From UHGV virus genome UHGV-0143306: a stretch of 21,941 bases of DNA; one strand, 5' to 3'. The notes under the pieces were generated by a model. It did not search any database, was not told the origin of the DNA, and saw only the letters and a program-made list of their open reading frames with translations. This document shows, one piece after another, positions 2,894-20,486 of this stretch. The position numbers and the translations under genes were made by a program. The DNA is from a virus. Each line of letters begins with the position of its first letter. Position 1 is the first letter of the stretch.

Positions 2894-2911
2894 GGCCCGT
2901 AAGGGCCTTTA
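2893..2911. terminator. Hairpin between convergent gtrC and tailspike genes, candidate bidirectional terminator
   Basis: AGGCCC-GTAA-GGGCCT (6-bp GC-rich stem, 4-nt loop) at 2893-2908. It sits between the gtrC stop (2891-2893) and the tailspike stop (2909-2911) with short U-rich flanks in both directions. Confidence 0.5.
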
Positions 2912-4888
2912 CAATGTTGGCTTAACCCACAATTTATAGTTAATACCATAGGACGCGTTAGCTGTAGTTTGTAGGACTATAGACGCATCGCTTCTAGATT
3001 TTATTCCAACTCCGGATGGCTGAGTATTTGTGCTGACACCTACCATAGCCGTAAAATCGACTATTTTAAAGTTTTCTGGAGCTGTTATGGTAACAGTGCC
3101 ATCAGCAGCAATCTTAGCTCCCTGCCACGAATTATGCACAGATACAGATCTCCCTGCATAATCGTATGAGGAGCTTGGCTTTAAATAGCGCTCTATGTAC
3201 ATCCCGCCTATAGCCTCTATATTAGCGTAGTTAGCTGGTGCTAGCTTGAGTCTAGCATCACCGCCGCCGAGTGCAGGAGCGCCGCCTAAGTTTACTCCGC
3301 AATCCTGGAAGGTCACTTTGCTTGTTGTGTCAACAGATGTAACATATTTCGTTGTTCCATCTGTCGGCCATGGCTTCACAACGGGCTGCCAGTGCTTAAT
3401 CGTTACGGTGCTGTATCCGTTAACATAAGACAGACTTCTATCAGCGTTAGGTATCGCCGTCTCATCAGTTGCAGACATTAACGACCTTACGCGATACGCA
3501 ACCCCCTGCGTACCTAGTCCCGATGGTAGAATCTCACTAGGAAGCATCGCAAAAGAAAACTCAGCCTCAACGGAACCTATGCAATTCAGTAAAGCTCCTT
3601 GCCACGCCTCTACTCCCATATCAAAAATTACCCCGTCACACGAATCAAGGGTAATGCCCATTGCAGTCTCGTTTGTGTAATCATAGTGAGCCATCGACGT
3701 CAAGGCTCCTTCGAACCAGCCGTGGAATTTAGCGTAGTTACAATTTCTAAGGTAGACAGGGAAAATCGTATGGTCGATTTGTAATTCAATATTATGCGAC
3801 GTTGTGCTGCCTCCCTCTGTGGATTTTTCCGGGGTTTTACTCACGGCATCCCAATATATCCCCTTATGGCATGAGTCAATTTTTATACTACCCTGAGTGC
3901 CCCAGCATGAGTACCCGAAAGCAGCGAACTCACCGCCATAAAGGCAAACATCAAGATTCATCTTCATGGCATTATTCATATGCAGGCAGATGGTCCCAAC
4001 GCCCTTAGAAGGAGTGTGTCTGGCCACATCCCATCTAAGCTGAAACCCCTTAAAGGTAATATTTCGCACATTGCTTCCGGTAACGCCATCACCAGTAAAT
4101 TCTGACGCGTCACCGACTCTAACAATGCACAACTGCCCAAATGCGTATGAGGAATAATCTGTAGGTACGCTGCGGATAAATCCTGTATCCCATACGAAGT
4201 CATTTAACGGTGGGGCAATCCATGTAGAATATGGGCCCAACTTGAGATAGTTGTCACCAAGGTGATATTTTTTAAACTTGGCAACATGAATGGGCCTAAC
4301 CTTCCTGTTAAGGTTTTCTGCCAACTGGCATGCAGCCCAGTCAATTGTCTGGGTCAGAGATGTTACGAATGGGTATACAGCCTGCGCTGCTGCAAGAGTC
4401 GCATAACGCTCAGATAATGGATGAACCGTACCATCTCCGATGGCGCCAAACTGCTCTGGAGATACAAACTGAATGACTTGCGAAAGATTTCCTTGTGGTT
4501 GCACGCCTACAAGCTCAGCGCCTGTTGGAAGCGCTAAATCCTGTCGCAATCTGTCAGGATCGTACTTCAGAACATTCGGAAAATAAAACTGCTGAGCACC
4601 GTATGCATCATAAACAGCCATAGAATGGCCTTGCACAGTTACGAACTTGGCAATCTGCCCGTTATATACAGGATAACCAGCAGCGTTAATGATAATTGGT
4701 TGCGAAACAGGAACGTGAGAACCGTCTTCGTTTTCCACATAAACCCGAATCTGGTTTTCAGGATTTACCGGGTCAGTGTCAATTTTACCGATATAAATTT
4801 TTCCATTGGCTACGGCTTTAAAAGAACGAGCCATAGTGAAGAGTTGCGAAGGCATAGATACAATCACATTGGCTGTAATGTCTGTCAT
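2909..4888 (-). CDS. Tailspike protein, 659 aa, P22-type head-binding N-terminal domain with a divergent receptor-binding domain
   Basis: N-terminus [47 protein letters not shown]... closely matches the P22 gp9 head-binding domain as recalled; the rest does not resemble P22 gp9. GGAG lies 9 nt upstream of the ATG. Confidence 0.88.
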
Positions 4889-5023
4889 TTAATTTGCTCC
4901 AGATACAAGGAATCGCCGCAGCATGGCTACGGTTGGAATTTGTTACATACCGAAACGGTGCGATTGTTGATTTGTACAGTAGGTTTTACGATGCCATTCC
5001 ACCCAACTGGTGAGGCATCAAGG
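4889..5023. promoter_or_regulatory. Divergent intergenic region between tailspike and mnt with candidate promoters and operator
   Basis: 135-bp non-coding gap between divergent starts. Contains an imperfect inverted repeat CCGCAGC-ATG-GCTACGG (4914-4930), a TGTACA palindrome (4973-4978), and a possible plus-strand -35 TTGTTG / -10 TACGAT with 17-nt spacing. None of these is verified. Confidence 0.3.
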
Positions 5024-5284
5024 ATGTACAGCAAATACGACGAGGCGCAGTTTCACTTGAGACTTCCGCATGAACTTCACGCGAAAATTAAACAGCGTGC
5101 GAAGATGAATAACAGGTCGCTGAACTCAGAGATAATTGCAGCGATTGAAGAATCATTGGCTAAACAAAGCTCTGCATCTGTTTACATTGACGATGCAGAG
5201 CGTATGGCAGAACAACAATCTGAGATGGTTAAGAAAATTGTCTTTGATACGCTCAAGGAGCTATATAAAAAAGACAGCAGCTAA
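5024..5284 (+). CDS. mnt: Mnt-like ribbon-helix-helix repressor, 86 aa
   Basis: C-terminal region DAERMAEQQSEMVKKIVFDTLKELYKK matches P22 Mnt (DAERLADEQSELVKKMVFDTLKDLYKK as recalled), and the N-terminal RHH region is similar. Start chosen at the internal ATG at 5024; the longer track ORF (4625-) overlaps the tailspike gene. Confidence 0.8.
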   Translation: MYSKYDEAQFHLRLPHELHAKIKQRAKMNNRSLNSEIIAAIEESLAKQSSASVYIDDAERMAEQQSEMVKKIVFDTLKELYKKDSS

Positions 5285-5304
5285 CTATCAGTTACGGAGG
5301 ATTT

Positions 5305-5382
5305 ATGCAAAGAGATATGCTGAATATTGCGTTCTACATATTTGGTTTTTGCACGTTCCTGGTGTTTGCGAAGCTATTCTGA
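5305..5382 (+). CDS. Hypothetical 25-aa hydrophobic peptide (MQRDMLNIAFYIFGFCTFLVFAKLF), single predicted transmembrane segment
   Basis: GGAGG (5296-5300) lies 4 nt upstream of the ATG at 5305, 20 nt after the mnt stop; TGA at 5380-5382. Not in the ORF track because it is too short; the translation was done by hand. Confidence 0.3.
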   Translation: MQRDMLNIAFYIFGFCTFLVFAKLF

Positions 5383-7371
5383 CAACGCATCAGACTTGGC
5401 ACCTTGAGTCAGGGCGTTAATGGCCTTTTGCGCCTGCTGCATGGCTTTCTCAAACGCTGTTGATCCGCGTGGGGTGTTTGCCATTCGGAGCATTGCATTT
5501 CTGAATGGCTCGCTCTCATAGGCGCGAGTAAGAAGTCCGTAGCTTACCGCTGCGCCAGTTGTCGCCGGGTTCATTGCCGTCCCATATCCGATAATGAACG
5601 GGATGGTTTGCTGCCCTGTTGGTGTTGTTACTGCCGATTTTGCAGCCTGCTGCGTGGATTGCAGGTAGTTTTTCAATCCTTTCAGATAAGCAGCATCCTG
5701 CCCCTTAAATATTATTCCAGTCTGGTTTTGCATGATGTTAAGCTGCCGAAGGAACTGGTCAGGGGAACCACCTGATTTCTCCATCGCCTTTCCAATGATG
5801 CCATTGCGCATTTGCACCCTACCAACACGACCAACTGAGTTATACAGAGCCTTAATTTCAGATTTGTTCTTGCTGAATAGTATGTTGTTGACAACTTCCG
5901 GCGTCAGGTCGCCTTTCATGAGAACATTCTTCAGCCTGGTATTCTTTAGTTTCGCCGCTTCGTCAGCGTAGACGGCATTGGCCTGCTGATATTTACGGAG
6001 AGTATCGTTGCCAAGATTCTGACCAATGGCACCATTGATATCGTCTGTCATCGCCTTGTAAACGCGCTGAATGGCGGCATCGGAACGGTTTGGTAACACT
6101 GGTCGCTCACCCTTCACGTCCATTCTGAACTGGCTGCGCAGGTCGCTTAATTGCTTCAGATCCAGATTTACCGGACCATCAGGACCAGCATTGCGAACAA
6201 GCTCATCACGATATGACTGAAGTTTTGAAATAGTCTCGTTATCAGCAACCTTACCAAGCTTCTGCAGGTTAGATATTTCTGTATCAATCTGCTGAATTGC
6301 TCGCGCAGGCTGAATGTTTACTCCAGCCATAGCATTCTGAACCTGCTCAAGACGGTTCCCTGCAGCACGACGAATTCCTGATGTTTTCGCTTTAAGGCTG
6401 TCAATAACAACAGCTGGATCATACTCACCGAATTTATCAGCAAATCTCTGCACCAACTGGCTTCTCGCTTCCTGTTGCGTTGCTCTCATTCCGCTTGTGC
6501 CAGCCAGGGGGATATTTTCTGCTGTAGTCTGCGCCATTTTCCCGACGCGGGAAGTAGGCTGTAACAGGTCTGTGGTGTGCAGAGGAACTCCTTCACGCTC
6601 TGCAAATCTGATAGCCTGCTGCGCTTCTGGCGCAATAGCACCACGAACGCCACGATAAGCAGCACCTAATCCACGTCCGGCAGCGTTAATAGCACCGCCA
6701 GCCAGCACACCAACGCCTAAATCGGTGGCGAGTGCTTCCGCATCATCTTTCGCACTATTTGCAGCAAGTGATCCAACTGCGTTTTCTGCGAGAAGTCGTG
6801 TTGCCCCCTGAGCAATTCGACCAGCAAGTGTTGGTGCCTGTGCTGCCGCTCTCTCAACGCCAGCAGGAGTGAGGTAAGGCAATGCTTCAGCAAATACCCT
6901 TCCCTCTGTCGTTTGTGGAGTGAGCGCGCCTTGCTGAAGACCAAAGTCCTGCTCTAACCCCTGCGTTGTTACTCGTGGCGCTGGTTGATATGTACCATCG
7001 CCAATGCCGAGTTTACCGCCAGCCCATGCCGCCGCGCTTGTTACAGCATCGGCAACTGATGCAGGTATGTTTGCCACGTTCACGCCAGCCTGCACCAGTC
7101 CACGACCAGTCTCTTTTACTGCTTCACCAAGATCAGACATAAACCCACTTTGCTGTGGTTGTTGCTGTGCTTCTGGTTGTTGTGTCTCCACTGGCTGCAC
7201 AGATGGCAATGGATAGGTAGCATAGAAAGCTTGCTTAGCCTGCTCTGCATTTTCTCCGGCTTGCGGGGCCACGACTTCATTGAAGTATTGCTCCTGAGCC
7301 TGCGCTTTTTGTTCTGGTGCTAACGCCTGATACTGTGGAGAGGCGATAACATCTTTCCATGCTTTAGCCAT
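5374..7371 (-). CDS. Ejection (injection) protein, P22 gp16 homologue, 665 aa
   Basis: Last gene of the gp7-gp20-gp16 block in conserved P22 order. Start overlaps the gp20 stop (TAATG). Confidence 0.8.
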   Translation of the reverse strand: MAKAWKDVIASPQYQALAPEQKAQAQEQYFNEVVAPQAGENAEQAKQAFYATYPLPSVQPVETQQPEAQQQPQQSGFMSDLGEAVKETGRGLVQAGVNVANIPASVADAVTSAAAWAGGKLGIGDGTYQPAPRVTTQGLEQDFGLQQGALTPQTTEGRVFAEALPYLTPAGVERAAAQAPTLAGRIAQGATRLLAENAVGSLAANSAKDDAEALATDLGVGVLAGGAINAAGRGLGAAYRGVRGAIAPEAQQAIRFAEREGVPLHTTDLLQPTSRVGKMAQTTAENIPLAGTSGMRATQQEARSQLVQRFADKFGEYDPAVVIDSLKAKTSGIRRAAGNRLEQVQNAMAGVNIQPARAIQQIDTEISNLQKLGKVADNETISKLQSYRDELVRNAGPDGPVNLDLKQLSDLRSQFRMDVKGERPVLPNRSDAAIQRVYKAMTDDINGAIGQNLGNDTLRKYQQANAVYADEAAKLKNTRLKNVLMKGDLTPEVVNNILFSKNKSEIKALYNSVGRVGRVQMRNGIIGKAMEKSGGSPDQFLRQLNIMQNQTGIIFKGQDAAYLKGLKNYLQSTQQAAKSAVTTPTGQQTIPFIIGYGTAMNPATTGAAVSYGLLTRAYESEPFRNAMLRMANTPRGSTAFEKAMQQAQKAINALTQGAKSDALSE

Positions 7372-8726
7372 TAATCACCCCATAGTGAAGAAAAGTTACT
7401 GCTGGCTGCTGGCTGTGATACCTGTGCAGGTTGAGATTGATGCCGCTGAGATTTACCAACATTAACGTTATATTGTTGGTTGTAATTGTTGGTGTATTCC
7501 TGAATCTCACGAATCGACTGCTGCATAGCCTCCGGGCTTGAATAGTCAACCTGCGGCATCCCCTGAAAATACATCTTCGCTTCTGCAACAGTGTTAATAC
7601 CACTGGCACCCATGTCCCTTGCTGCCGCCACACCCTGATTCTGCATTCTGCCCTGAATCCGTTGTGCTGAGTTATATAACTGGCGCTGCTCTTTTCCTGT
7701 TAATCGGCTGCGAACATCAGCACCAATTGCTGGATTACCTGCACCGCCTGTCATTCCTGTCATGAAATCGAGAGCAGAAGCGTCTGCATTTGCGATCGCG
7801 TCGATATCCTTCTTCATGGCATAGTTTTGTGCTGATGCAGACGATGTTGCAGGCGCTGCGATTGAACTGGCAGGAACGCGAACCATATTCCCCTCGTTGT
7901 CGATGCCTTCGTAGAACGCATTAGCCCCAGCGCCATGAAGCTTCCCGCCGACAGTTACAGTTCTGCCATCTGATAACTGAACTGTACGCTCATCATTCCC
8001 AGCAGTTCCTCTTGTTGACGCTCGCTGCATTGCCAAATCCTGCCCGCGCATCGTGATGTTCTGACCTCGTGCTGTTAGCGCCTCTCCGGCCTGATTGCTG
8101 CGGATTGTCTCTGCCAGCCTGCCTCGGTCAATCTCACGACCAGCCATCTTGTCCTGAACATTGAAGTAGTCAATCGGACCGAGAGCAGCCATCCCAAGGT
8201 GATCAACAAACTCACCAAACCCTGAAGGGTTCTGCTGATACATCTGAGCAACGTTATTAGGGTCAACACCGACGCGAGTCAGTTCCTTGGCGTTGTTTTG
8301 CAGCCATGATTGCATTGCTTCTGGAGACGATGACGCAAGGCGTGCGCCAGCCGCTAAGGTGCCGATAGAATTACGCTGCTCTTCATCAATGAATCCCATG
8401 CCTTTACGAACGGATTCAATCTGGTCTGGATATTGAGTAGCCAACTGACGCAAAGCACCGCGATCACCAGACGCATAAGCATTAGCGTACGCCTGCTGAA
8501 ATTCTTTCTGCCGCTGAGCCTGCTTTTCCTGCTGAAAAACACCCGCAATACCTGAAAGACCTTGCAAAGCAGTCAGCCCAACATTGTTAGCGCCTGAACG
8601 CTCAATATCATTGTTCTGCCTGATAAGCTGAAGCGTATTGCCGATGTCATTTACGCTCGGAGCGTTTGAGTTTACGCCGCCGATACCAGCCAACAATCCG
8701 CCGTTTGTTCCTTGCCAAGTAGCCAT
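7371..8726 (-). CDS. Ejection protein, P22 gp20 homologue, 451 aa
   Basis: Position and size (451 aa versus roughly 471 in P22) in the conserved gene order; Ala/Gly/Gln-rich composition typical of ejection proteins. Confidence 0.78.
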
Positions 8727-8735
8727 GATTACCCC

Positions 8736-9428
8736 TTAAAACAACGAGCCAAGCAATCCGATACCAGCACCAATGCCAGCGCCCCAAGGCGTTGATGTTC
8801 CCAAAAGGCTGGCAAGACCTGCACCGGCAATCGCACCAGACGTGCCACCGCCAATTGCAGTCTGAAGACTTGATGGTTTATTGGCATTAGCAGCGGCAAG
8901 TGCTGCGCTTTGCTGTGCAATGCTGCTCATGTTGTTGGCGTATGTCTGCCCAGCGTTTGCCTGACCTTGCAGCGCACCAAGCCCAACGTTTGCCAGATTG
9001 TTGTAATTGCTCATCTGGTTTGATAACCAAGACTGACCGAGAGTCGGCGCGATCGTAGCCAGTTGATTGCTTGTGGCTGTCGAACCAAGTCCACCCGTCG
9101 CCTCCGCAGCAGCAAGACTCTGGTAACGCGCCTGACCTGCAAGGTCTTTATACTGCTGAGAATTGTAATACTGATTAAGTGCCTGCCCCTGACCTTCTAA
9201 ACTGGAAAGATTCTGAAGCTGGTTAACATACTGCTCCGCAAGCGGCGTGAACGGAGCAAGGTTTTTCATGATCGTCTGCCACTGCTGATTTTGCAGGTCT
9301 GCGGCATACTTCTGAGCTTCTGCTGCATACTTTGCGCTTTTATCAGAGCTGCCACCTTTCCCGCCTTTTTCAGGGCAATAAGGTTCCTCGCCGCGCAGTT
9401 TTCTGCCCAGCTTAAATGCATATAACAT
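8736..9428 (-). CDS. Ejection protein, P22 gp7 homologue, 230 aa
   Basis: 230 aa versus 229 in P22 gp7, in the conserved position between the gp14-position gene and gp20. Confidence 0.78.
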   Translation of the reverse strand: MLYAFKLGRKLRGEEPYCPEKGGKGGSSDKSAKYAAEAQKYAADLQNQQWQTIMKNLAPFTPLAEQYVNQLQNLSSLEGQGQALNQYYNSQQYKDLAGQARYQSLAAAEATGGLGSTATSNQLATIAPTLGQSWLSNQMSNYNNLANVGLGALQGQANAGQTYANNMSSIAQQSAALAAANANKPSSLQTAIGGGTSGAIAGAGLASLLGTSTPWGAGIGAGIGLLGSLF

Positions 9429-9430
9429 GG

Positions 9431-9886
9431 CTATCTCCCGTGATTCAGGAAGTCGATTAGTTCTTCGCGTGTGGCGCTGTAAAAAGTCACGTCATCCACG
9501 CCTTTGAAGTATTTCTTGATGGTTCCGACACGCTTAAGGCCAATCATTGCGCAGTAAATCTGCCCGTGGCGGAATTTGCGTGCGGCGAACGATGTGACGC
9601 ACTGAACGGTGGTGTTAGTCAGAATGTATCGCCAGAACGCCAGCCCGATTTCCTTGCTGAATCCGCGAATCTCTGGCAGGTACATGGCGTGGCAATCGAA
9701 TGTCAGCGGCTGAATCTCCTGATAGTAAACAATGCCGCCAAACTGACCGTGCACGTTCACCTCAAAGTAACGGCAATCAGGTTTGTAGTCGTATCCATCA
9801 CCGTTGTTGCTCCCGGCGATGATGTCAGGGTGATTTCCTACTGCTTCGATCAGGTCGATGTTTCGCGTTGGTTTGAATGTAATCAT
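9431..9886 (-). CDS. Protein at the P22 gp14 position, 151 aa, function uncertain
   Basis: Tightly packed between gp26 and gp7 with a 1-nt overlap to the gp26 stop. Assignment is by position and size only; I cannot recall the P22 gp14 sequence. Confidence 0.6.
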   Translation of the reverse strand: MITFKPTRNIDLIEAVGNHPDIIAGSNNGDGYDYKPDCRYFEVNVHGQFGGIVYYQEIQPLTFDCHAMYLPEIRGFSKEIGLAFWRYILTNTTVQCVTSFAARKFRHGQIYCAMIGLKRVGTIKKYFKGVDDVTFYSATREELIDFLNHGR

Positions 9887-10587
9887 CAGTCAATCAGCCC
9901 ATGTAATCTAAGTGCCGTTTCAAGCGCCAGAATACGCTGCCGCGCCTGCTGCAAACCTGTAGCGAGTGCTGCGACTTCGGATTGCGTGTACGTAGTGCCG
10001 ACAGTGTATGACTGGTTAGCGTTGAATGCGCCGAGGAGTGCCGTTCCGGTTGCCGCTGTCCATCCTGTCTGACGAGCACCGATAACCTTGGTGCCGCCGA
10101 CTGAATAGGATGTTGTTACGTTGAGGGGGGATGCCAGCGATTGTGTTGCTGTTGCTGTTTTCGATACGTAATCGTTCTGCAATGCAGAAATATTTCCTTC
10201 AGCCTCCGTCACTCTACCATCAAGAGCACTGACATCAGCCTGCAAGGTGACTATTTCACCTTCAGCCGTGGTTAGTCTGACATCCAGCGACGCGATTGCA
10301 TTGGTATTTGCAGTAATACGGATTTCATGGTCGTCTACGTCGATGCGGAGCTGACGAATTCTTTCTTCGTGATCGACCAGAATAACATCCTGCTCATCAT
10401 TCCTGACCTGTGCATCATAAGCGCCCTGTCCGGCCTCGTTGGCCTTGTTAGCCACGTTACCAACGTCAGTGCCCTGTGCGATAACGTAAAGCAGATACGA
10501 CTGCGAGAAGATATTGCGTGGAAGGACTGATGTGTCGAGCCGTGTAGCCTGAATGATTACCGGCACATTGAGATTCGAATCCGCCAT
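9886..10587 (-). CDS. Tail needle protein, P22 gp26 homologue, 233 aa
   Basis: [43 protein letters not shown]... closely matches P22 gp26 as recalled, and the length is identical (233 aa). Confidence 0.9.
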
Positions 10588-12005
10588 TACTCAATCCTTA
10601 TCTGAGCGCCAGACAGAGTGACAGGTGACTTCGTGATAACGCGCAATTTGAAGCCGACATTTTTCCTGATGCGCCCGACTCGCTTCCACAAAACACGTTT
10701 GTCGTAAACGAACGGTTCATTCTGCTCAATCATCTGCTCACGTCCGTAATTGATGCCGTCAGTGGTTGCAGAGAGGAACAGGCGGTCAGCGTACTGCGCA
10801 ACTCCAGTTGACGATTCAACTTCAAGGTCGAAAACTCTGGCGTTATCCGCTTTGAACAGTGGAGTAAACAGCAGGTGTTCCTGTTGCTTGTCGTACTGGC
10901 TGCTGATGTCGAATTGCAATTTCCCGGTCACGGACTCCAGTTTATCGCCGCACGTTATCTGATTGCCTTCGTAAATGAAGTCGATAGCGCGGTACACATC
11001 GTCATACAGACCTGTTTTCAGCACACACCATTGCGGACCATTGGCGCTTGAAGATGCGTCGTACACGAGAACATGGCGCGGAAGGTGGATAATCAGCAAC
11101 TCATGAGCATCAAATCGCAGCGATTCCATCACACCATCAGCCAGTTCATCAGCAGTGTAGGAGCGGAGGATTTTCTCAATGCTCGCGCTGGCGATTGGTG
11201 ACACCTGACCGGAGCCGATGATGTATACAGACGGCGCACCCGTTGCCGGATTGCTGATGAACGCATAGGAATCAGCAAACGGCGTTTTGCAGTAAGTTCC
11301 GGCAATGCCTTTCTGCACCATCAGCGATGGCTGTGCGACATACAACGCGGCACCAACAGTGGTTGCACCAGTCAGGGAGAAATATTCAATCGTTGATGAA
11401 CCAAAGCAGACGATGAAGTCTCGCCATGTGCCGATACCGATGATGCCGTCCGGCTGCGATTCTGCGCGATATTGTGCGCTGTAACGGTCAGGATGCGATT
11501 CGTCTTCAAGGTCAGTGATAAACCATGAATCAGTGCCGTCTTTTGACCACGCATAACGCCCACGCAAGCGCGTAATGTCACGAACCGAACCTAACTCATA
11601 CTGCGTGAATCCGCTGTCCGTAGGCCAGTTTGAGACGGTTTTAACCGTGCCATCATAACGATACTCGATCAGTTGACCATTAACGCCTACCGCCTGTGAT
11701 GTCCGACCATGCGCCATTGATACGCGACCACTTCCGGCAACATCACCGACTTCACTTTCTCCTTTGTACAGTTTGCCACCACACACGCGATAAACAGCAC
11801 TCTGCGCCATGTTGTACTCGACGCCTCGAGATATACCGTTCACATCAGAACGTTTGGCAATGCCCGGGAATGAGCGAAGATATCCGCTGCTGTTCAGGAT
11901 TTCTTTGGGTGTAGCCAGCATATTCACTGGGAGATAGTCGATATAGTCGGCGTTTCGAAAGTCTTTGCCGACACCTTTCATAAGCGGAAGTTGCTGAATC
12001 GGCAT
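10587..12005 (-). CDS. Tail accessory / head-completion protein, P22 gp10 homologue, 472 aa
   Basis: [37 protein letters not shown]... matches P22 gp10 as recalled; same length (472 aa). Confidence 0.85.
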
Positions 12006-19076: not shown

Positions 19077-19319
19077 TTATGCTCCGGTAGTGAACAGGTC
19101 TAACGCTTCCTTCGATTTACGCACCGCTTCGATAGTTCGGGTCGTGATATCTGAATTAGCGCCACCTGACTGGAAGTGAATTTTGAATAGCTCAAGCTTC
19201 AACTCGTCAGTACCAATGAACTGAAATGCTTCTTCTGCGGCTGCGTTCTGGTTCATGACCAGTTTATATATCTCTAACTGGAATTTCTGTTCTTCAGTCA
19301 TGGGAATAATCTCTGCCAT
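19077..19319 (-). CDS. Hypothetical protein, 80 aa, immediately upstream of the terminase genes
   Basis: GGAG 8 nt upstream of the ATG; 2-nt gap to the small terminase start; acidic, helical-looking translation. Same size and position as the P22 80-codon ORF as I recall it. Confidence 0.55.
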   Translation of the reverse strand: MAEIIPMTEEQKFQLEIYKLVMNQNAAAEEAFQFIGTDELKLELFKIHFQSGGANSDITTRTIEAVRKSKEALDLFTTGA

Positions 19320-19619: not shown

Positions 19620-20144
19620 TCAATTAATCAGCAGTTCAGGCTGTGTCACCTGCAAGATGTATTCATGCTCGACAGTCAGGACACGCTTCTCTTTCTTCCG
19701 TTCGTTCATTAACCGACTGCCGATCGTACCTTTCAGCTTTGAGCGTGTTTCTTTGATGGCGTAGCGGTGCTGCATTTCTTCGCCAATTGCCATGCGGCGG
19801 CTCAGTTGTTCTGCCATCCAGTTGAATGCTGCGATATAGCTCTCCTTGATTGCCGCAGCAGCTTTCCCGGTGAACCCCATCACAACCATGATCCAGCCAT
19901 CTTTCGTCAGGCTGTACATCGGGCGAACCTTGCCCTGCTCATCGATATAATCAGCCGACGCAAAATTGCGTTGGCTAAACTCACGCGAGCAATCAGCCTT
20001 AACCTGCTCGATTTTCCTGAGAACATCACCGTGTCGCTTGCCGAAGTACTTGGCAATTTTTCTGGATGTGGTAACGACCTCTCCGTTTTTGGCTTGCACC
20101 ATTTCTCGGAAGTCGAAGGCTGGAATAACTGAATGATTATTCAT
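19620..20144 (-). CDS. rha: Rha-family phage regulatory protein, 174 aa
   Basis: From the internal Met: MNNHSVIPAFDFREMVQAKNGEVVTTSRKIAKYFGKRHGDVLRKI...MYSLTKDGWIMVVMGFTGKAAAAIKESYIAAFNWM fits Rha-family motifs as recalled. The track ORF's N-terminal extension would span a terminator and is judged spurious. Confidence 0.78.
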   Translation of the reverse strand: MNNHSVIPAFDFREMVQAKNGEVVTTSRKIAKYFGKRHGDVLRKIEQVKADCSREFSQRNFASADYIDEQGKVRPMYSLTKDGWIMVVMGFTGKAAAAIKESYIAAFNWMAEQLSRRMAIGEEMQHRYAIKETRSKLKGTIGSRLMNERKKEKRVLTVEHEYILQVTQPELLIN

Positions 20145-20286
20145 AGCGTCTTTACCTTTTAGAAAGTGAGCCTGTCTCACAGAAAAGCCGCCCGAGAGAG
20201 GTCGCCACCTATAACGGCATTTCTCAGGCTCGCTTACTGAAAGGCTCTCGTTAATATGCGCGTGAGATGCGCTGTGAAATTCAGAT

Positions 20287-20311
20287 ATAAAAAGCCCCGC
20301 GAATGCGAGGC
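20287..20311 (-). terminator. Intrinsic terminator downstream of the lysis cassette
   Basis: On the minus-strand RNA: GCCUCGC-AUUC-GCGGGGC (7-bp GC-rich stem with one G-U pair) followed by UUUUUAU, about 175 nt after the Rz stop. Confidence 0.6.
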
Positions 20312-20486
20312 TAAATCCTGGTATTTGTAATGAACTGGCTCTTATCTCAACGCAGCCCCTTACTGCGCGCCAGATGCTCAATATCAAGCATCAGCAATGA
20401 GATGTTTAATCTGGATTTACTCCAGAAGTGATCACCACCCTGTCTACAGAGCCAGATGTGAAGGATGATGAGTAAAATTATCGCTA

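Follow-up and report, generated by a model that had tools for sequence, protein, structure and literature searches.

In phage P22, the immI region (BK000583, 14.2–16.2 kb) lies between gene 16 and the tailspike gene (gene 9) and comprises, in addition to mnt with its operator and its promoter Pmnt, the promoter Pant, Oarc, arc, the antisense RNA sar, ant with its terminator Tant, sieA and orf59a. The Mnt operator lies over the Pant start, and the hexamers of Pant are situated inside the Pmnt region, on the other strand. A reduced form of this module has already been published as the 'mnt-only ant moron' (Villafane 2008, PMC2629481; Zaworski 2020, PMC8022706), and the layout, in which a solitary mnt and the tailspike gene point away from each other, is an ordinary one, being found also in ST160/SE1, L/ST64T/ST104, Gally, 720R6, VSe13, JEP4 and the Proteus phage Brookers. 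In the group of L, ST64T, ST104, SE1 and ST160, the tailspike leader, operator, Pmnt and mnt follow each other in this order, the annotated gap of ST160 and L measuring 135 bp; arc and ant are absent, the Pant hexamers are lost and a GATGCC...GGCATC repeat extends over the mnt leader, all of which is shared by the locus described here. With regard to the role of the lone gene, the papers on phages L and epsilon34 speak of 'another function or a remnant', and Zaworski et al. (PMC8022706) left it possible that the mnt of phage L is a function-less remnant. For the mnt of the DNA analysed here, an earlier note had offered either a Mnt-regulated promoter reading directly into the tailspike gene or a remnant of a deleted immI region; these are the two alternatives already in print.

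The window, by which we mean the whole stretch of 21,941 nucleotides under analysis (UHGV virus genome UHGV-0143306), derives from a P22-like (Lederbergvirus) prophage, of which it represents the late region, with the following features:

Left end of the window, plus strand: gtrABC
Minus strand, in this order: holin, lysozyme, Rz, Rha-domain gene, terminase ... gp7, gp20, gp16, tailspike gene
2909–4888, minus strand: tailspike gene, 659 aa (Pfam Head_binding, 1.1e-66)
4889–4944, minus strand: tailspike leader, homologous to the P22 gene-9 leader
4946–4962, no strand assigned: putative Mnt operator, 17 bp, CATACCGAAACGGTGCG, with the dyad ACCG/CGGT centred on A4954
4964–4992, plus strand: Pmnt-like promoter, −35 TTGTTG (4964–69), 17-bp spacer, −10 TACGAT (4987–92)
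4990–5019, plus strand: inverted repeat GATGCC-N18-GGCATC (inner arms CACC/GGTG) that overlaps both the −10 and the mnt Shine-Dalgarno region
5024–5284, plus strand: mnt homologue, 86 aa, ribbon-helix-helix N-terminal domain and Mnt tetramerisation helix
5305–5382, plus strand: hydrophobic ORF, 25 aa, MQRDMLNIAFYIFGFCTFLVFAKLF, unannotated, with a GGAGG ribosome-binding site
5374–7371, minus strand: homologue of gene 16 (DNA ejection protein), immediately preceding the moron in the late operon

The mnt unit is placed inside the late operon, between the homologues of gene 16 (whose match in RefSeq is named 'P22-gp16 family phage DNA ejection protein') and of the tailspike gene, and it contains mnt and a small companion ORF, with neither arc nor ant, which are the position and the content of an mnt-only ant moron. 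Identity of the tailspike to P22 gp9 (75%) is confined to residues 1–113: its N-terminal head-binding domain is of the P22 type, and its receptor-binding part is a different one. As the earlier note had recognised, mnt on the plus strand and the tailspike gene on the minus strand diverge from a gap (4889–5023) of exactly 135 bp, which is too small for arc. The coordinates confirm this, and so do tblastn searches of the 21.9-kb window, in which the best E values were 1.3 for P22 Arc and 0.88 for P22 Ant, and homologues of sieA and orf59a were not found (all E > 0.8). Apart from the Rha-domain gene (19620–20387), near which no operator is located, the window contains no relative that is Ant-like. 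No Rfam match to the sar RNA was obtained at E ≤ 1 in 4400–5800 (P22, as a control, gives RF00262 at 97.8 bits). With Pant, which is treated below, arc, sar and ant, four hallmarks of a functional P22-type immI immunity region are missing from the window.

This arrangement is common. The 801 bp from 4700 to 5500 recur at a coverage of at least 80% in at least 140 of 5,426 complete E. coli genomes, the window-type stretch is also carried by the phages IME10, Sf101 and ECO26.1, and nearly all of 80 IMG/VR relatives, which were fetched via the protein, show the order gene 16, mnt, tailspike gene with a gap of either 121 or 135 bp. Shigella phage Sf101, coliphage IME10 and E. coli prophages encode a Mnt allele 96–98% identical to that of the window and share its operator class, its gene order and the 25-aa ORF, whereas their gap of 121 bp contains another tailspike leader and a Pmnt spacer that is 2 bp shorter.

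The assignment of 5024–5284 to the Mnt family, which the earlier note had made, is firm. The family was tested as Pfam PF11423 and PF03869 and as PDB 1MNT and 1QEY: the Arc ribbon-helix-helix domain of Pfam matches residues 7–49 (6.5e-15) and Repressor_Mnt residues 57–82 (2e-15), while the structures of the N-terminal domain of P22 Mnt (1MNT) and of the Mnt tetramerisation domain (1QEY) match residues 6–79 (E 1.3e-19) and 56–84 (E 6.5e-9), respectively. Both the N-terminal domain and the C-terminal tetramerisation helix that characterise the family are therefore present, and the protein is 50% identical to P22 Mnt. Mis-annotation of its relatives is widespread: the RefSeq record of Sf101 labels mnt 'partition protein ATPase' and IME10 leaves the gene without annotation, and in both cases Mnt is the correct designation. 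A toxin–antitoxin reading, in which a ribbon-helix-helix protein is paired with a small hydrophobic peptide, was set aside, as the C-terminal part of Mnt is the tetramerisation helix and the peptide has no link to known toxins; PADLOC and NCBIfam searches with Mnt and the 25-aa ORF yielded nothing useful.

Each element in the 78 bp from 4946 to 5023 has its homologue in the mnt half of the P22 immI control region, and the gap can be described as a tailspike leader fused to this half at a junction 1–2 bp from the operator. In P22 the equivalent sequence reads AGGTCCACCGTGGACCT-A-TTGAGA-17-TATCAT, the first element being annotated as the Mnt operator and the hexamers as Pmnt. The 17-bp dyad of the window shares its register with the annotated P22 operator and with the palindrome of ST160 and L, each of them situated 1 bp from the Pmnt −35, and by position and comparison it corresponds to the cognate operator that members of the Mnt family have beside their own promoter. 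In relatives, the site reads CATACCGAAA(T/C)GGTAC, the closest ones possessing the perfect palindrome TACCGAAACGGTA; the window differs by a private A-to-G change at 4960, in the right half-site. When eight diverged control regions were aligned, whose Mnt proteins are just about 50–65% identical to one another, the invariant columns included C4951, G4957, G4958, A4963, the TTG of the −35 and the TA..AT(G) of the −10. The Pmnt-like hexamers are the positional homologue of the annotated P22 Pmnt, with a start predicted near 4999 and 31 bp of leader after the −10. By consensus this promoter is weak (7/12), and it consequently lies below the threshold of the promoter scan. In the 121-bp gap of the commonest relatives, a 2-bp deletion places the Pmnt hexamers 15 bp apart.

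The earlier note had proposed that imperfect inverted repeats in the gap could be the operator and had suggested the comparison with P22 given above. Such repeats do exist, namely ACCG (4949–52)/CGGT (4956–59) and GATGCC (4990–95)/GGCATC (5014–19), but they are not in excess of chance: a short-loop repeat as good or better was present in 94% of shuffled gaps and a long-loop one in 39%, and a dedicated repeat search of the gap reported none. It is hence comparison, rather than symmetry, that carries the operator call, and on this basis the first repeat, within 4946–4962, is probably the Mnt operator. A second copy of it was found neither in the window nor in the whole Sf101 genome; an operator-like site at 19121, with three mismatches, was discarded as being at the level expected by chance. 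The second repeat (4990–5019) is common to most lone-mnt types (the window type, ST160/L and Gally), is reduced in the Serratia locus L009 to its outer arms, as GATGC/GCATC, and is absent from the control regions of P22 and of the Proteus phage Brookers. Its folding z-scores are −1.5 to −3.3, and taken alone the repeat does not exceed chance. The leader hairpins of both mnt and the tailspike gene fold just marginally better than shuffles, and Rfam returned no hit here.

In contrast to this conserved half, the promoter that opposes Pmnt in P22 has disappeared. Pant, with TTGACA-17-TATATT (11/12 to the consensus), is kept in every arc-ant locus examined, and its TTGACA is gone in all lone-mnt types; at the homologous place in the window stands ATGGCA-15-TACAAA. 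A promoter scan of both strands of the gap yielded no sigma-70-like site, and the best minus-strand match in the gap region lacks both key −10 bases. These findings speak against the first alternative of the earlier note, a promoter in the gap that reads into the tailspike gene and that Mnt, bound at 4946–4962, would repress as it does Pant in P22. The operator, which is 57 bp upstream of the tailspike ATG, does occupy exactly the place from which Pant is blocked by Mnt in P22, and the 121-bp variant of the gap has at the Pant-homologous place a weak match, ATGGCA-17-AATACT (8/12), that keeps the key A and T of the −10; matches of 8/12 are, nevertheless, expected by chance, and the TTGACA missing from every lone-mnt type is invariant wherever arc and ant exist. 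We consider such a promoter improbable, and one controlled by Mnt should not be assumed for the tailspike gene of this prophage.

The tailspike leader itself resembles that of P22. Positions 4944–4835 are 82.7% identical to the gene-9 leader and 5' end (blastn against P22 immI), the Shine-Dalgarno GGAG is the complement of 4897–4900, and a 7-bp hairpin, CCGUAGC-CAU-GCUGCGG (4916–4932), is predicted in both the window and P22, although its fold z of about −1.0 to −1.5 is weak by itself. The P22 gene-9 leader falls in a 101-bp feature of CUS-3, bsq1, that is annotated as a 'boundary sequence'. A scan of the minus strand between 5374 and 4889 found no terminator-like site. With neither a promoter-like site in the gap nor a terminator-like one between gene 16 and the tailspike start, read-through of the late operon, antisense through mnt, would by analogy with P22 be the simplest route of tailspike expression.

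If the tailspike is reached in this way, Mnt might act on the passing transcript instead of on a promoter: bound Mnt, as a roadblock, and/or convergent transcription from Pmnt might reduce the transcription that enters the tailspike gene from the late operon or from moron genes upstream. Villafane et al. proposed for P22 that the ant moron, possibly via Mnt and Arc, influences the frequency with which late transcripts arrive at the tailspike gene. The absence of a terminator would suit this idea, and so would the constant adjacency of the mnt unit and the tailspike leader, on the far side of which gene 16, small ORFs or a second immI-like unit may be found; that adjacency can, however, be explained by descent combined with insertions on the far side. 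Moreover, the Q-modified late transcription complexes of lambdoid phages generally pass obstacles. An effect on read-through is, in our estimation, an unlikely role for Mnt.

The account that we favour, with moderate confidence, is that of an autoregulated relic unit, composed of operator, Pmnt, mnt and the 25-aa ORF, beside a tailspike gene that is served by late-operon read-through. The unit is what survives, namely one half, of the P22-type immI module or 'ant moron' that is located between gene 16 and the tailspike gene. All that Mnt controls in P22 is gone: Pant, which opposes Pmnt, arc, the antisense RNA sar, and ant with its terminator. A Mnt tetramer would bind the single operator, centred about 45 bp upstream of the predicted start site of its own gene, and tune its own small operon from there, while the late transcript would run from gene 16 across mnt in antisense into the tailspike gene, with no Mnt-controlled promoter involved. 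That Mnt binds the operator, in which direction it affects Pmnt, where transcription starts and how the tailspike gene comes to be transcribed are predictions. Small ribbon-helix-helix proteins with a dyad operator at their own promoter are also known in Arc and CopG, but their operators overlap the promoter core, whereas that of the window is upstream of the −35, so that the sign of any autoregulation cannot be predicted from sequence. Several observations weigh against this account: Pmnt matches the consensus in just 7/12 positions and its hexamers stand 15 bp apart in the 121-bp relatives, the window operator has its private change at 4960, and a site upstream of the −35 is unusual for simple autorepression. 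P22 Mnt was reportedly seen by Vershon and co-workers in 1987 to stimulate Pmnt, an effect usually ascribed to the removal of competition from Pant; this competitor is no longer present in the window.

Further insight into the module can be gained from the residues with which Mnt reads its operator. In P22 Mnt, the operator contacts are said to be Arg2, His6, Asn8 and Arg10 (a result attributed to Knight and Sauer, 1989), and positions 6, 8 and 10 are taken here, from mutagenesis in the Sauer laboratory, to lie on the DNA-reading beta-strand. According to the alignment, P22 H6/N8/R10 correspond to Q9/H11/R13 in the window, only the equivalent of Arg10 (R13) being retained, and the N-terminal arm reads MYSKYDEA instead of MARDDP. 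Alterations in contact residues argue for a different DNA specificity, not for exclusion from the Mnt family, and the half-sites change with them: operator half-sites co-vary with the class of the beta-strand residues, as follows:

H-N-R Mnt, operator GGTCCAC.GTGGACC: P22, epsilon34, UPF_BP1 and a Pluralibacter locus
H-N-R Mnt, left operator half AGTCC: a Pectobacterium locus
Q-N-R Mnt, operator AGACCAC.GTGGTCT: ST160/SE1, L/ST64T, Gally and the contig L326
Q-H-R Mnt, operator ATACC-N5-GGTAC: the window, Sf101, IME10, VSe13, JEP4 and a Serratia locus

The specificity of the window Mnt thus appears to differ from that of P22 Mnt, with ATACC as its half-site instead of GGTCC. Compared with the L/ST160 group, whose Mnt proteins are 49–59% identical to that of the window, the latter differs in residue class (Q-H-R versus Q-N-R), in the operator (AAGACCACGGTGGTCTT in that group) and in what follows mnt, namely the 25-aa ORF without a terminator in place of orf62/orf64 and a bidirectional terminator. 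Since it lacks Pant, arc and ant and its specificity is changed, the window unit cannot act as a second immunity region in the manner of P22 immI.

The ST160-type and window-type lone mnt have derived features in common, the GATGCC...GGCATC repeat and the loss of TTGACA, that are not found in full immI loci. These shared leader features suggest that operator and protein changed together after Pant had been lost, and the most economical history would be a single loss of Pant-arc-ant followed by a joint change of operator and recognition residues, for which selection would have had to keep acting on binding. The same pattern could, however, be mimicked by two separate recombination events. If it holds, the locus would exemplify a repressor and its binding site that are retained, with their specificity shifting jointly, after the genes they controlled have gone. 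To the layout known from the literature, the present comparison adds a dissection at the level of single elements. It also distinguishes three specificity classes of Mnt, each with an operator to match, shows that Pant is systematically lost where mnt stands alone, and draws attention to an ORF of 25 codons that is conserved but has escaped annotation.

One activity that would account for selection on both the protein and its specificity is immunity exerted in trans, Mnt silencing the antirepressor promoter of superinfecting or co-resident phages with an operator of its own type and so preventing induction of its own prophage, with the local operator merely setting the level of Mnt. P22 Mnt does this to superinfecting P22 (PMC2629481), and a target exists for the sister class: L326, an IMG/VR contig of the AGACC type, is a complete unit of mnt, Pant with operator, and arc-ant, and its operator is that of the lone mnt of ST160 and L. 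For the window class, however, no ATACC-type operator linked to an antirepressor was encountered: a scan of IMG/VR for Pant plus operator, which demanded an exact TTGACA-17 promoter and which variants would escape, returned 106 contigs of the P22 type, serving as positive control, one of the AGACC type and none of the window type. In addition, JEP4-like phages that have ant beside a window-type mnt use a second, different Mnt/Arc pair. Taken together, these results leave trans-acting immunity unlikely, if somewhat less so than a gap promoter or an effect on read-through. Fifteen metagenome hits of the window-type pattern were rejected, none of them being near Mnt, Arc, Ant or tailspike genes, and two-copy operator patterns 515 bp apart in five IMG/VR contigs (L105 among them), which had the appearance of promoter-plus-operator units, belong to an unrelated HK97-like group that has neither a Mnt homologue nor a match in the phage collection and were regarded as coincidence. 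Every Mnt-linked operator hit examined adjoins a tailspike gene.

Evidence that the unit has been maintained comes from the relatives of the window. The mnt gene is intact in 116 of 118 window-type copies, with a pN/pS of 0.25 over 67 alleles (the copies are not all independent), and the operator core and the Pmnt hexamers have been kept while the interleaved Pant hexamers have decayed. On these figures mnt is under purifying selection and the unit is not inert. The second alternative of the earlier note, a remnant of a deleted immI region, is consequently right as a description of the anatomy, given the 78 bp of homology, and wrong if 'remnant' is taken to mean something inert, in view of the selection on mnt and of a conserved operator that co-varies with the protein. 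The same distinction applies to the 'common inert deletion derivative' against which that note had measured its proposal: the layout is common, in E. coli genomes, in named phages and in print, but it is not inert.

A decaying remnant without present function has, admittedly, a certain appeal, for the canonical target is gone, the window operator has acquired a private mutation, and the mnt of Kapi1 shows no detectable expression in a lysogen. Further arguments of this kind are provided by the Gally prophage of E. coli LF82 (Misson et al. 2023, PMC9928086), the sole lone-mnt prophage with both expression and deletion data. Its mnt is at background level in LB, and in the one assay available, survival of the lysogen in macrophages, deletion of mnt caused no change (PMC9928086), which is what would be expected if no antirepressor depends on mnt. 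Against this stand the selection on mnt just described, the invariance of operator core and hexamers next to decayed Pant hexamers, and the joint change of operator and recognition residues, and we judge absence of function to be very unlikely.

Gally resembles the window in that its lone mnt and its tailspike gene diverge and that operator and Pmnt occupy equivalent positions, and differs in its Q-N-R Mnt (60% identical) and in two moron genes between gene 16 and mnt that are strongly expressed (PMC9928086) and missing from the window. In macrophages, its mnt rises 40-fold (tables in PMC9928086) and its tailspike gene about 20-fold (log2FC 4.42; PMC9928086), whereas the upstream late injection genes remain at background level (PMC9928086). 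As the late genes are silent, the tailspike gene of the Gally prophage can evidently be transcribed without the late operon, which would favour a promoter in the gap; the rise is explained just as well if transcription continues from moron gene 14, which is strongly expressed, upstream of mnt and on the same strand, and mnt and the tailspike gene go up together and not inversely, as repression would have it. The window has no counterpart of gene 14. The joint rise of mnt and tailspike with late genes silent is likewise not predicted by plain autoregulation. It hints at another reading, which we put forward tentatively and regard as about as unlikely as immunity in trans, that the pair of Mnt and operator was kept and re-tuned for a new job once its antirepressor target had been lost. 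If so, it may represent a condition-responsive switch, independent of the lytic programme, for genes on the tailspike side or for the 25-aa membrane peptide.

Finally, the 25-aa ORF begins 20 nt past the mnt stop codon, and it shares its final 9 nt with the 3' end of gene 16, which runs on the other strand; it is probably co-transcribed with mnt. No match to it was found in Pfam, PHROGs, PADLOC or NCBIfam, it is not annotated in the RefSeq record of E. coli M9, and it is unrelated to the orf62 of phage L. The ORF is nonetheless retained in about 98 of 118 relatives, with a pN/pS of 0.21 over 29 alleles.

The commonest variant of the spacer between tailspike gene and mnt, found in relative L026 and in most E. 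coli and IMG/VR relatives, measures 121 bp, and it differs from the window both in its tailspike leader and by the deletion of 2 bp from the Pmnt spacer (window 4970-4986). As a consequence of this deletion, the Pmnt hexamers lie 15 bp apart and a weak match on the opposite strand, ATGGCA-17-AATACT, is found at the position homologous to Pant.

More elaborate arrangements were also found. In the relatives L139 (flipped 6000-11000), L123 and L176, in phage JEP4 (L004) and in the Serratia locus L009, the tailspike gene is adjoined by a window-type Mnt N-terminal domain, and on the far side of this tailspike-proximal mnt there is a second complete immunity-I-like unit, so that each moron carries two Mnt paralogues. 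In this second unit, a further Mnt-like gene and a set of arc-like, ant/Rha and KilA genes are read in opposite directions away from each other, the latter toward the tailspike-proximal mnt. The window-type operator (ATACC-N5-GGTAC class) occurs only once in each of these loci. The sole contig found with a complete unit, made up of mnt, Pant together with AAGACCACGGTGGTCTT, and arc-ant, is L326 (IMGVR_UViG_2795385501_000005), which shows that a full immI region also has the operator class (AGACC) of the lone mnt in ST160, L and ST64T.

An operator look-alike was encountered in the IMG/VR contigs L105, L110, L136, L147 and L171, where the exact 16-mer CATACCGAAACGGTAC is present in two copies 515 bp apart. 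It sits in a repeated element, composed of TATATA, the palindrome and then a ribosome-binding site with ATG, which precedes two small genes upstream of terminase in an unrelated HK97-like phage group (GC 0.54). No Mnt homologue lies near the copies in these contigs, the phage collection gave no match, and the pair was treated as a coincidence.

On the other side of the operator, the 5' end of the tailspike gene looks like a hotspot of insertion and recombination. In some relatives (the IMG/VR contigs L018, L054, L067, L074 and L091, plus phage Kapi1, L097 743-1243), a homing-endonuclease gene of the HNH type (165-180 aa) interrupts the tailspike gene after its first ~5 codons; what remains beside the Mnt operator is a stub comprising the tailspike leader, ATG and 5 codons. 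The tailspike gene proper starts again farther along. A comparable stub is retained in JEP4 and relative L058, where AT-rich DNA continues for ~280 bp after it. The leader itself contains a conserved hairpin:

4916-4932, - strand RNA: CCGUAGC-CAU-GCUGCGG, located 5' of the tailspike ribosome-binding site

Its folding beats that of shuffled sequences only marginally. The hairpin falls inside the region annotated as 'boundary sequence' (bsq1) in CUS-3, and the P22 spacer between ant and gene 9 (L003 ~4560-4690) has two copies of the motif AAAATTCACCGTAGCCA, one at each end of a stretch of about 100 bp.

Two further reading frames of the window deserve mention:

5305-5382, + strand: hydrophobic 25-aa ORF (MQRDMLNIAFYIFGFCTFLVFAKLF) with a GGAGG ribosome-binding site, directly 3' of mnt
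19620-20387, - strand: gene for a regulatory protein with a Rha domain (Pfam Phage_pRha, 3.7e-28)

The last bases of the small ORF run over the 3' end of gene 16, which is encoded on the opposite strand. The ORF has no family match and is unannotated, RefSeq having no entry for it in E. coli M9; it is conserved, being present in ~98 of 118 relatives with a pN/pS of 0.21 (29 alleles). The Rha-domain gene is placed between the lysis and terminase genes, with no Mnt operator near it.

The mnt gene itself is widely misannotated. It is left wholly unannotated in IME10, and many RefSeq phage records, including NC_027398 (Sf101), NC_002371 (P22), NC_014900, NC_011802 and NC_011976, label it 'partition protein ATPase', a wrong label also carried by PHROG 795, the best PHROG match of the window Mnt (1e-35).
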